A stretch of 64,000 nucleotides of DNA, taken from Escherichia phage vB_EcoM_G2540-3. The DNA is taken from sequence record MK327944.1; one strand, given 5' to 3'. Position 1 is the stretch's first letter. Every line of letters starts with the position of its first letter. The notes beneath the pieces were generated by a model that worked only from the letters and a program-made list of their open reading frames with translations, had not been told where the DNA came from and did no database searches. Both the position numbers and the translations under genes were made by a program. This document shows, in pieces, positions 8,095 to 22,003 of this stretch.

Positions 8095-8507
8095 TATTTT
8101 CCAGCCTCAAATGCCCGCATGTCTTGAATATGCTTAATAGCAAATCCGCGTGATTTAATAGCATCAAGAGCTCCGCTACAGAAATCTAATAAAATCCCCC
8201 AATACTGTAACGAGGTATCAACCTTTAAAACATCCTTATCAGCTGATAGAACTGTCTTCATTTCTGATTTCTCGTAACGATCCATACTAAATTCATCACC
8301 ATCTCCTCGTCCCGAGTAGTAGTCTAATTTAGCTTTAAGAGCAACTTTTTTCTGTGCTTCAATTCTAAGCATTTCCTTTTTAATACTTGAATGCTTATTA
8401 AGCCATTTACTATATAACATCACATTATTAGCTGCTTCATATTGTAATTTAGTCGAATCTATAAACACATCTTTCTTCAATTCTTCTTGAAGATCTTCTA
8501 ATTTCAT
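8094..8507 (-). CDS. uvsY: UvsY recombination mediator
   Basis: 137 aa; N-terminus MKLEDLQEELKKDVFIDSTKLQYEAANNVMLYSKWLNKH near-identical to T4 UvsY. Confidence 0.95.
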   Translation of the reverse strand: MKLEDLQEELKKDVFIDSTKLQYEAANNVMLYSKWLNKHSSIKKEMLRIEAQKKVALKAKLDYYSGRGDGDEFSMDRYEKSEMKTVLSADKDVLKVDTSLQYWGILLDFCSGALDAIKSRGFAIKHIQDMRAFEAGK

Positions 8508-8573
8508 ACTGTTCTCTATTCAATTGTTATTGGATGGACTTAGATTCATTATACCACGTTTATACGTGAAGCA

Positions 8574-8972
8574 TTATACTCTATTACTGGAAGCCAGTTG
8601 CAGTTTTATCTGCTCAATATCATCAGGGTTATCAATGACCGAAAAGCGTATTTCTACTATCAGAGTATAATCATCATAAACCGGTATTACATTAACTGCT
8701 AATTTATCAATACGTGGCTCATAGTTTCTTACTGCGCTTTCGATGTTACGCTCAACCGTATCAGCAGTAAGAGGAGTCATATTTTCAAAAAGCTGATCTG
8801 ATAAATCACATCCAAATTCAGGGTCAAACGGTCTTGAACCTTTTCTGGTTGTAATAATTCCTAAAAGGCTATTTTTAATTGACCTTAATCCAAGAGATCT
8901 GGAAACGTCTTTGTCCCAGTCCATTTTCATTTCTGGGTCGATGTCAGAATAAAGCTTATTAATATTTGCCAT
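8574..8972 (-). CDS. 25: Baseplate wedge protein gp25
   Basis: 132 aa, T4 gene order uvsY-25-26. Confidence 0.9.
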   Translation of the reverse strand: MANINKLYSDIDPEMKMDWDKDVSRSLGLRSIKNSLLGIITTRKGSRPFDPEFGCDLSDQLFENMTPLTADTVERNIESAVRNYEPRIDKLAVNVIPVYDDYTLIVEIRFSVIDNPDDIEQIKLQLASSNRV

Positions 8973-16209: not shown

Positions 16210-16262
16210 TTGTGTTCCTCATGTTATGTCAGTAAGACTACTATAACACAACACGAGGGACT
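16210..16262 (-). promoter_or_regulatory. Early-promoter-like cassette (GTTTAC…TATAGT) with leader and SD; 53-bp identical copy of 29508-29560
   Basis: Minus-strand reading gtttacaagtccctcgtgttgtgttatagtagtcttactgacataacatgagg; identical at both loci. Confidence 0.55.
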
Positions 16263-16626
16263 TGTAAACTACATTTTGAACTTTTTAGTACGCGTAATAG
16301 GCATGCGTCGATTTTATACTGTTTCATTGTTTGAAGAGCAGTATCAAAAACAGCATTAATGACACCAATTGGATTTCCACCCAAGTTTTTAAGCTTAACT
16401 AATGATAGTTTCTCATTAACACCTATCATTACGATATGCATCATTTTATCGCCCGGCTTAACGTTTTATTCGTATCACCGCCAGAGGTGTATGTACAAAA
16501 TCTAAATCCAGGAAGCACGCTTTCTTCGCCGGCTTGAATAGCAAAAATTTGTGGTATTTTATGCTTAGGATTTAAGTTAACAACCGGCGCCGAAGCGCCG
16601 TCAAATAATTCTGTAATAAGTTCCAT
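16241..16626 (-). pseudogene. Decayed partial copy of the alt 5' end (Alt N-terminal ~130 aa, internally frameshifted)
   Basis: Two ORFs (61 and 67 aa) in different frames that align with Alt residues ~2-62 and ~64-130. Confidence 0.6.
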
Positions 16627-16629
16627 GAT

Positions 16630-18739
16630 TTATCCTTGAACGAACTTGTAAGGCATGTTTGCAATATCTATGCAAGACGCAATAATTCCAAGAGATGATT
16701 CTACTTTCTGTTTAACATTTGATGAAACAAATGATGCAAAGTCAACTCTATCTTCTATATCACCTGTCATTGTAACCAATTCACCAGTTTCCATTAAACG
16801 GTCACCGTCATAGATTACCGATTCGGTGAGTTCTTCTGTGGTCATAACTTCAGCTTGAATAAGCTTGTTGTTAGTTCTAACTGTTCCATCGTTGTAAGAT
16901 GCATCGGTTATTTTATTAACTTTGACCATTAATCCACGTGGCAAAATGACTTCCATTTCATTTGAAGGCGCTAAACTTCCACCGGGTAAAACAACATTGA
17001 CCTTATCAGCCCCAGTAATAACCCGCTAAACTTCCACCGGGTAAAACAACATTGACCTTATCAGCCCCAGTAATAACCCATCCAATTCCAACTAAATTAT
17101 CGCTAGAATTTACTAGTCCTTCATCAGTTTTATCAATAGAAACACTTAGACGCTTTTCGTCTGGTAAAACACCTATAGATGAATCAGTCATCCAAGTACC
17201 AAAAATATTTGGATATAATGATGTTGACACAAAGTTTCTAAAATAAAAAACTCGATTTTTTACCATTGCTTCATATATTGAAGGTAACATTCGTTGTGAA
17301 CGATACAAAGTAATACCTTTTGGTAATCGTTCACCATTTTTAAAGGCTGAATCTAAATTATCAATGGCTTGTTCTATTTCAGGTGCTGTTAAAATACTTG
17401 TACGCTCATCTGGATTATATAATCCCAAAAGAGCATTATTTATGTCTACATATCCTGAACCTACATATTCACGAATTCCGCGTTTTTGCGCTGGTGTGTA
17501 TTTAGATGAATCTTTATTTTCGACTATAGGATGTAATGACCATCCAGCGGTAAGAGCATATCCACGTAATTCTCTTCGAATAATCTTTGTTTTTATTGCA
17601 TTCCAAGAATTTTGCACTAACTCATTATTCGCAGCGTCTTGATTTAAATGCGAATGTCTGTTAATATTTCTTTCAAACCAGGCACCTTTATATTTTTCTA
17701 AAGTATCATCGACGATAGAAGCAATAGTTTCTAAAGTTTTTATTGAAGTAATAGATTCTTTTCGTAATTTTTCTAAAGCTTTATTTTTTATTTCTGCATT
17801 AATAATGGATTCTTTATCTTCAGGAATTATAGAAGCTTCTCTGAATGCCATCCCAGCTGTAACACTGCTAAGAGCATTCTCTAGTGCAAATCCTGAAGTA
17901 GAAATTACCGTTAATTCATTAGAATCAGAAATTAAAGGCGCGTCCGCTGGTTTATTTAATTCTGCCGCTGAAGCCTCAAATTTTTGAAACATCGGTGTTT
18001 CAAATCTAGAAGATTCCAATGACTGACTTTGTGCAATTGCTCTACGGGAAATTTTAACTTTAACGATTACAGCTTGGTCAGAACGTTTATCATTTTCTTG
18101 TGCAATAGATGCTGCAATTGCCTCATTTTTAGTTACTTGAGCTCCAGTATCTTTATTGATATAAACATCACCGACCTTCGATTCAACTTTAGTAAAGAGC
18201 TCGGTACTAATTTCCGGAACCCCTGGAATGTCTTCTAGTGATACATTTTTGCGATGTATAAGAATATATGCATACTTTTTATCATAATCCCAGAGTTCCT
18301 TAAGAAGGACGTATCTGCCACCTGAACGACTACGGATAAGTCTATCAGCAATAACTTGAATTTGTCGAGCTTGGCCAGCAGTTTTAGACTTAAGAATACG
18401 AAGCATACAAGCATCAATTTTATACTGACGCATTGTTTGCATTGCAACAGTAAAAACCGAATTGATATAATTAATTGGGCTTGGACCAAGACCTTTCAAT
18501 TTAGCAATTGAACCTTTAGCGGTTAATGTAAAAGGAACAATATGCATCATTTTATCGCCCATCTTTAAATCACGATTAGTATCACCTCCAGATGTATAGG
18601 TACATAAACGAAAGCCTGGTTGTTCAATTGCGTCATCAACATGAACTGAAAAAATTTGCGGTATTTTCTTCTTTGGATTTAAGTTTGTAATCGGAAGAGT
18701 AGTATCTTCGTCAAATAATTCTGTAATTAGTTCCATCAT
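16630..18739 (-). pseudogene. alt: ADP-ribosyltransferase Alt, interrupted by a 55-bp tandem duplication (577-aa N-part plus 108-aa C-part in shifted frame)
   Basis: Removing one 55-bp copy restores one continuous ~684-aa frame (…VVLPGGSLAPSNEMEVILPRG…), close to the 682 aa recalled for T4 Alt. Confidence 0.8.
16970..17079. repeat. Perfect 2 x 55-bp direct tandem repeat
   Basis: gctaaacttccaccgggtaaaacaacattgaccttatcagccccagtaataaccc occurs twice back to back (16970-17024 and 17025-17079). Confidence 0.9.
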
Positions 18740-20437: not shown

Positions 20438-20703
20438 TATTTATCCTTCAGAGTTTGATTTACAGTTCTATTATAAATCAATTCATCATTAAGCTCAGGC
20501 AAAGACTTATGATATGTAGTTCTAACTTTATTTCCTTGCATCCAGTGCTTGACGTAAATGAAACCTTGCTCTACACATTTTTTAAAAATTCGTTCGTCTT
20601 TTTGAGCTCGGAATTCTGGATTGCATCTAAAAAATTGATTTACGTGACCGTAATCACGTGTAGTATTACCTTCATTTTCATAAATAGTGTGAACAACAAA
20701 CAT
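20437..20703 (-). CDS. Hypothetical protein (30.1 position)
   Basis: 88-aa ORF. Confidence 0.6.
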   Translation of the reverse strand: MFVVHTIYENEGNTTRDYGHVNQFFRCNPEFRAQKDERIFKKCVEQGFIYVKHWMQGNKVRTTYHKSLPELNDELIYNRTVNQTLKDK

Positions 20704-21542
20704 TAGAATGCTCCTTGGAAAATATTATCACCACAAGTAGGTCTATTATACAAATACTCTATACCGCCGGGTTTAATATAGTTCCATGTCTGAAACGGAT
20801 GCGTCTGATATGGATGATATAGATGATTATAAGGATTAAATCCAGGAGTTCTCCAGGTAGTGTTCCAAGGAAAAGAATCGTTTTTAATCATCTTTTCAAT
20901 TACATCTTTTATAGCTTTTTCACTATCAAAACTTTCTTTATTTTCCTTTGGTGAAAAAAGCTTATTCTCTACATCGTTCCATGTATAAACTCGCTGAGCA
21001 GTTTTTGGAATACTGTCACGTTCCCCTCGAGCCATCCAATAAACAGGAACACTTAATATTTCACTCGCGTGGTCGCAGTGGTGAGCGAGATCGTCAATAT
21101 AACAAATTACGTTATATTTCTCTTTTGCCTTTTTGAACAACTCTTCTTTTGAAGAATCATGACCACACATCAGTACTTCTGAGAAGGCACCAGGAAAAAG
21201 AGCATTCAAATTAAATTGACGATTCAGCAGAGCGTCAATAGAATCACCCAGTGCTGTAACAGCTACAAAATTATAATCTTCTTTTAATTTGTTAATTACA
21301 CACAGGGCATCTTTATATGGCGACAAGTAACGAATAAAATCTGAACGATTGTATTTTTCAATTAGCTTAACGCCAAGTTCTTCATCACAATTAAAAAGTT
21401 TACCAGGAGAAATAAATTTCTCATCTTGGATCATTTTTAAAATATGTTCTAACGGAAGATTATATTTCTGAGCAAAATAAGGAAGGCCTGATTGCCAGCT
21501 TAAACATACTCCATCAATATCAGTTAAAATAGTAGGCTTCAT
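20703..21542 (-). CDS. HAD-superfamily phosphatase-like protein (30.2 position)
   Basis: 279 aa with N-terminal DxDGV motif (LTDIDGVC). Confidence 0.65.
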   Translation of the reverse strand: MKPTILTDIDGVCLSWQSGLPYFAQKYNLPLEHILKMIQDEKFISPGKLFNCDEELGVKLIEKYNRSDFIRYLSPYKDALCVINKLKEDYNFVAVTALGDSIDALLNRQFNLNALFPGAFSEVLMCGHDSSKEELFKKAKEKYNVICYIDDLAHHCDHASEILSVPVYWMARGERDSIPKTAQRVYTWNDVENKLFSPKENKESFDSEKAIKDVIEKMIKNDSFPWNTTWRTPGFNPYNHLYHPYQTHPFQTWNYIKPGGIEYLYNRPTCGDNIFQGAF

Positions 21543-22003
21543 AGAGAGTCTCTTAATAGGTTTAACACATCAATAAATTCAGCTTCGGTTAGTATTGTAT
21601 CATCTTTTGTTAGACCACTAGCCATGCTGTGCTTCAAAACTTTTCCTTTCGAGGCTAGTAATGCATCACGAAAGCCCTTGTTTTGAATCGCTGCTTCAAA
21701 ATATGCATTTGTGTATAATTCTTTCCACGCCGGGGAGTATCTTGAAAACGGAACTCCGAGCCAGAAGAGGGTCCCACGGTCCTGAGCTCTTGCATAAGAC
21801 CTTCCAGCTTGCTGTGCGGCAAGCCCGGATAACCCAAATATACGACGTTGTTGTTCAACATTTTTCACCTTACACCCTTGGAGGAATCCTTCGAGACCTC
21901 CAAATTGAATACCATCCATGACGAAAGGCCATTGGGCGAAATTACTTAATGCACATGATGGCCACCTAAAATTGCTTCTAATCTCTAACTCAGACATTTT
22001 CAA
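21539..22003 (-). CDS. YbiA/NADAR-like protein (30.3 position); likely true ATG start near 21997
   Basis: Motif CALSNFAQWPFVMDGIQFGGLEGFLQGCK resembles YbiA/NADAR core (FSNFAAWP…DG…); first track codon is TTG. Confidence 0.6.
   Translation of the reverse strand: MKMSELEIRSNFRWPSCALSNFAQWPFVMDGIQFGGLEGFLQGCKVKNVEQQRRIFGLSGLAAQQAGRSYARAQDRGTLFWLGVPFSRYSPAWKELYTNAYFEAAIQNKGFRDALLASKGKVLKHSMASGLTKDDTILTEAEFIDVLNLLRDSL

Follow-up and report, generated by a model that had tools for sequence, protein, structure and literature searches.

Gene 30.3 of Escherichia phage vB_EcoM_G2540-3, a Tequatrovirus ortholog of the T4 anti-DarT gene adfN

INTRODUCTION

Gene 30.3 of bacteriophage T4 has been renamed adfN, for anti-DarT factor NADAR (Johannesman et al., Nat Commun 2025, PMC11825919). 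Recombination with phage RB69 located the DarTG1 defense resistance of T2 and T4 in the 3' part of 30.3. In RB69, the gene carries a frameshift and its product is missing the final 15 residues; loss of this C-terminal helix leads to DarTG1 sensitivity. Deletion of adfN from T4 or T2 leaves no plaques on DarTG1 hosts, and ectopic AdfN-T4 supplied in trans rescues RB69; AdfN is both necessary and sufficient for DarTG1 resistance. The E36A and K43A proteins give only partial rescue, C-terminal truncation is also impairing, and purified AdfN takes ADP-ribose off DarT1-modified DNA (PMC11825919). Here, we analyze the corresponding gene in a 64,000-nucleotide stretch of Escherichia phage vB_EcoM_G2540-3 (MK327944.1), called the window, to which all positions refer.

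In vitro, T4 gp30.3 hydrolyzes guanosine-ADP-ribose (ADPr) and not thymidine-ADPr (Cihlova et al., Toxins 2024, PMC11125620). For all NADARs tested so far, the activity is likewise on DNA-borne guanine-ADPr, with none on thymidine-ADPr (PMC11125620); the T4 protein is inactive against DarTG2 (thymidine-ADPr). In the HIDEN-SEQ transposon screen, 30.3/adfN insertions were lost on DarTG1 hosts only (bioRxiv 10.1101/2025.11.20.689424). A single phenotype has been reported for adfN deletion, and it is specific to DarTG1; on E. coli K-12 the phage can do without the gene (PMC11825919; bioRxiv 10.1101/2025.11.20.689424). Gene and mechanism are thus already published, with in vitro activity in 2024, AdfN in 2025, and transposon confirmation in 2025.

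Two other NADAR groups provide further points of comparison. One is DarG1 and the DarT1-associated NADAR antitoxins (BC4488 subfamily), with a Geobacter lovleyi protein (8bat) and one from E. coli C7 (Schuller et al., Mol Cell 2023, PMC11543638). The other is the YbiA subfamily, with E. coli YbiA (2b3w) and a Phytophthora NADAR (8bau). A residue in the last strand separates these groups, being His in the phage clade, Glu in the YbiA family, and Asp in the DarG1/BC4488 family (PMC11125620, PMC11543638).

RESULTS

Orthology to T4 gene 30.3

The window derives from a Tequatrovirus (T4-like) genome, and the 2 kb around 30.3 are 98 to 99% identical to many Escherichia, Shigella, and Yersinia T4-like phages. 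The minus-strand gene order is that of T4: alt, alt.1, 30 (DNA ligase), 30.1, 30.2, 30.3, 30.4 ... 31, cd, pseT. The window protein equals T4 gp30.3 in length and is identical to it at 150 of 152 residues, the two substitutions relative to T4 being Q114L and I125M. This identity, the gene order common with T4 (alt-alt.1-30-30.1-30.2-30.3-30.4), and the ~98% DNA identity to many Tequatrovirus records establish the open reading frame (ORF) as the Tequatrovirus ortholog of T4 gene 30.3. The gene and the codons preceding it are as follows.

21539..21997, minus strand: gene 30.3 (adfN), 152 aa, ATG start; NADAR-fold protein and putative DNA ADP-ribosylglycohydrolase, with E36, K43, and H123 present and helix 138-151 intact
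21998..22003, minus strand: two additional codons, TTG AAA, within the 3' end of gene 30.4; included in the coordinates of the initial annotation

The ORF contains the peptide CALSNFAQWPFVMDGIQFGGLEGFLQGCK and matches PF08010 (Phage_30_3) at 235 bits (cutoff, 36; E value, 2.7e-70), a match that spans profile positions 1-138 of 138 and, counted from the TTG start, residues 13-152. Given this match, the 114 homologs in the databases, and the near identity to T4 gp30.3, it is a real gene and not a chance reading frame. From the 114 homologs gathered, we aligned the 58 that are full length, with identity down to 35%. E36, K43, and H123 are invariant in 58/58 sequences, and neither Q114L nor I125M falls in an invariant column. 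The C terminus is identical to that of T4.

The initial annotation had placed the gene at 21539-22003; the quoted peptide and the end at 21539 on the minus strand hold, and the start almost certainly does not. Its first codon, TTG at 22003, is the first possible start as called mechanically, with an ATG two codons on, at 21997. The ATG is almost certainly the true start, since the T4 annotation begins there and the published catalytic residues then number E36 and K43 (PMC11825919). The TTG and AAA codons are probably not translated as part of 30.3. At its ATG, 30.3 overlaps the stop codon of gene 30.4 (ATGTCTGA); at the other end, its stop shares 4 nt with the start of 30.2 (ATGA, 21539-21542). 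Tight packing of this kind is typical of T4 early gene clusters.

Relationship to the NADAR superfamily

Searches of Pfam, NCBIfam, and the PDB with the single sequence returned no NADAR (PF08010 only in Pfam, nothing in NCBIfam, and a spurious 3rjz at an E value of 0.37), so that a family profile was needed to detect homology. With that profile, an hmmsearch of the PDB gave E. coli YbiA (2b3w) as its sole significant match (E value, 0.0017), pairing LSNF...E...Q.K of the phage family with FSNF...E...Q.K of YbiA. Alignment of YbiA to the gp30.3 family by hhalign had a probability of 96% and an E value of 4.7e-9 over residues 15-121. Individually, 24/58 family members match PF08719, at best with an E value of 1.5e-7, which establishes the NADAR homology transitively. 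These results bear out the initial description of the 30.3 product as YbiA/NADAR-like. Structure prediction, proposed at the same time, yielded a confident AlphaFold2 model from the family alignment, with a predicted local distance difference test score (pLDDT) of 93.9, a predicted template modeling score of 0.89, the NADAR alpha+beta fold, and helix 138-151 modeled at high confidence.

In these alignments, E36 and K43 fall on YbiA E48 and K55, the catalytic Glu and phosphate-binding Lys (E43/K50 in PnNADAR and E88/K95 in the E. coli C7 protein). For the last strand, we took the equivalence of H123 to the YbiA Glu from published structures. The phage protein also differs from YbiA in its Pfam family (PF08010 as opposed to PF08719), and YbiA is encoded in a host operon under LexA control and has also been described as an N-glycosidase of riboflavin intermediates. 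A YbiA-like metabolic role for gp30.3, as an N-glycosidase acting on riboflavin-pathway intermediates or soluble ADP-ribose-derived signals rather than DNA adducts, is extremely improbable, as the phage clade has an invariant His in place of the YbiA-family Glu and both biochemistry and genetics show guanine-ADPr in DNA as the substrate and a phenotype specific to DarTG1 (PMC11125620, PMC11825919, HIDEN-SEQ). In addition to DNA, gp30.3 might act on a second, soluble substrate.

Proposed role of the window allele

Because the allele is full length and carries all key residues, we read the window gene as AdfN, an orphan antitoxin-like DNA ADP-ribosylglycohydrolase predicted to reverse DarT1 guanine ADP-ribosylation of phage DNA, with a probability of roughly 93%. 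The free-standing NADAR-fold enzyme would be made during infection. Host DarT1, of the DarTG1 defense, would ADP-ribosylate guanines in the phage DNA and so block replication, and AdfN would hydrolyze the N-glycosidic bond between ADP-ribose and guanine to yield replicable DNA again, acting in effect as a phage-borne orphan copy of the DarG1 antitoxin. Catalysis would proceed through E36, a conserved Glu, and K43, the Lys that binds phosphate, and the C-terminal helix would be required for full activity. We infer that the allele, with its Q114L and I125M substitutions, behaves like T4 AdfN, and from its full length DarTG1 resistance of the phage is predicted. The initial suggestion of counterdefense against ADP-ribosylating toxins has been established experimentally for the 99%-identical T4 AdfN, acting against DarT1 (PMC11825919; HIDEN-SEQ preprint).

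Position, neighbors, length, E36/K43/H123, and an intact C-terminal helix are shared with T4 gp30.3/AdfN (PMC11825919), and the window allele is intact where that of RB69 is truncated at the C terminus. DarG1 has Asp where the phage gene has His, and the DarG1-type NADAR 8bat_A has 219 aa compared to 152 aa for the phage protein, which fails as a substitute for the DarG1 antitoxin in uninfected cells. A DarTG1 toxin-antitoxin arrangement is not seen here, as no DarT1 toxin gene adjoins 30.3 and its immediate neighbors, 30.4 and 30.2, contain no ADP-ribosyltransferase (ART) by Pfam; 30.3 is therefore an orphan antitoxin-like gene rather than part of a toxin-antitoxin module.

Several observations weigh against this reading. 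A Pfam scan of the single window sequence gave no direct PF08719 (NADAR) match at an E value of ≤1. A NADAR profile search had been set beforehand as the test that could overturn the assignment, and its outcome was divided, with this direct scan negative and every more sensitive profile test positive. Pfam keeps gp30.3 in a separate family, PF08010, and its placement among the NADARs rests on profile-profile comparison and the predicted fold. The register at H123 is off by one between alignments, pairing it with YbiA E125 in the extended hhalign register and with YbiA H126 in MAFFT. On the experimental side, AdfN-T4 expressed outside infection does not rescue E. coli exposed to DarT1, and its rescue of non-T-even phages is minimal (PMC11125620, PMC11825919). 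NADARs of the AdfN-T4 type are fully effective only in T-even infection (PMC11825919), which suggests that an additional T-even factor is involved.

Proximity to alt

The only ART near 30.3 is Alt, whose gene lies four genes off, as first noted, with alt.1, 30 (ligase), 30.1, and 30.2 in between. Since alt is close by and on the same strand, gp30.3 might be functionally coupled to phage Alt (or ModA/ModB), erasing or editing the ADP-ribose that the phage attaches to host proteins or RNA. We searched 80 viral contigs encoding gp30.3 family members, each for homologs of the T4 neighbor genes, and divided the loci into close relatives (at least 84% identity) and distant members (37 to 46% identity; 66 loci in all). 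Loci in which the downstream sequence extended to 5 kb or more gave the following counts.

Close relatives (at least 84%), n = 12: alt within 6 kb in 12; 30.2 present in 12; ligase present in 12
Distant members (37 to 46%), n = 59: alt within 6 kb in 3; 30.2 present in 7; ligase present in 9

Thus, alt is near 30.3 in 12/12 close relatives and 3/59 distant loci, arguing for inherited Tevenvirinae synteny and against a conserved association. The counts for alt come from phmmer with Alt, a search that ARTs unrelated to Alt would escape. In the window itself, a 55-bp duplication interrupts alt shortly ahead of the E-x-E motif, and 30.3 is intact. A coupling to Alt is at odds, too, with the hydrolysis of guanine-ADPr and not thymidine-ADPr by the tested NADARs, with the DarTG1 specificity of the one reported deletion phenotype, and with the dispensability of adfN on E. 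coli K-12. We give such a coupling scarcely any credence, and the functional link to alt that the initial annotation had raised finds no support.

One member lies far from the T4 arrangement. A homolog with 39% identity to gp30.3 was found in a jumbo-phage-sized 308-kb ENA contig (L002:6001-6468; likewise L003-L005), near NUDIX and Thg1-like genes, indicating that the family occurs well outside the T4 synteny block.

The neighboring gene 30.2

The gene directly downstream of 30.3 was considered as a possible partner.

20703..21542, minus strand: gene 30.2, 279 aa; HAD-superfamily phosphatase-fold domain (residues 1 to ~195) and a poorly conserved C-terminal tail

No Pfam match was obtained for gp30.2. 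The HAD-phosphatase DxDGV motif reported for it is present as DIDGV at residues 8-12, and the family alignment supports the HAD fold, with D8, D10, K132, D150, and D151 invariant and T96 nearly so, corresponding to HAD motifs I-IV. We found a Rossmannoid fold with motifs I (DxD), II (T/S), III (K), and IV (DD). Conservation is poor over the C-terminal ~80 residues, of which 223-235 and 239-279 are modeled at a pLDDT below 50.

Among the 66 distant loci, 30.2 was found in 7 and directly downstream of 30.3 in 1, and it adjoins the ligase gene in 6 of the 7. An obligate partnership of 30.2 with 30.3 was rejected on these counts. As 30.2 sits beside ligase, not 30.3, in most distant loci that carry it, it is not counted in AdfN function. 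In the 308-kb contig, the 254-aa ORF just downstream of the 30.3 homolog is unrelated to gp30.2 (hhalign probability, 0.1%) and has no Pfam match. The HIDEN-SEQ text makes no mention of 30.2 in the DarTG1 context (bioRxiv 10.1101/2025.11.20.689424), and a literature search on gp30.2 returned nothing relevant. That gp30.2, whose gene is translationally coupled to 30.3, is the missing T-even partner of AdfN, or that ARTs of the phage itself supply gp30.3 with a second substrate, is very unlikely.

An alternative-frame ORF within 30.3

A further ORF is nested within the gene in another frame.

21655..21861, minus strand: alternative-frame ORF inside 30.3 (30.3' of T4), 68 aa; from the ORF list and the T4 annotation

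In T4, 30.3' has 75 aa (T4 locus 8403-8630, corresponding to window 21634-21861), compared to 68 aa here owing to an earlier stop. This variation in length within a 99%-identical gene argues against 30.3' as a conserved protein, and its standing as a gene is doubtful.

A frameshifted alt and its partial copies

The interruption of alt is due to a perfect 55-bp tandem duplication within the gene, at 16969..17079 (2.0 copies, 100% match), where T4 has a single copy. As a result, the reading frame changes past the counterpart of T4 Alt residue 570, leaving the C-terminal 108 residues out of frame and dividing alt into two ORFs.

17006..18739, minus strand: first alt ORF, 577 aa, ending in GYYWG and a stop codon
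16630..16956, minus strand: second alt ORF

The out-of-frame residues start with MEVILPRG, and we take them to be the catalytic E-x-E region of ADP-ribosyltransferases. The duplication junction occurs in 0/50,697 phage records, and the native junction in 114. Either the phage is a true alt-null variant or the duplication is an assembly or sequence artifact.

Nearby, at 16241..16626 on the minus strand, two small ORFs of 61 and 67 aa repeat the Alt N terminus (MELITELFD...). They are the counterparts of T4 alt.-1 and alt.-2, described in the annotated T4 record as an old duplication of part of alt.

DISCUSSION

The practical gain from this analysis is in annotation. In public records, the gene still goes under "hypothetical protein," as in most of them, or under "Bacteriophage protein GP30.3," and the name should be adfN. 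The updated name, the corrected start codon, and the incidental finding of a broken alt are its useful outputs. More broadly, adfN illustrates a general principle, itself already published, by which phages capture and domesticate a defense antitoxin to erase DNA ADP-ribosylation.
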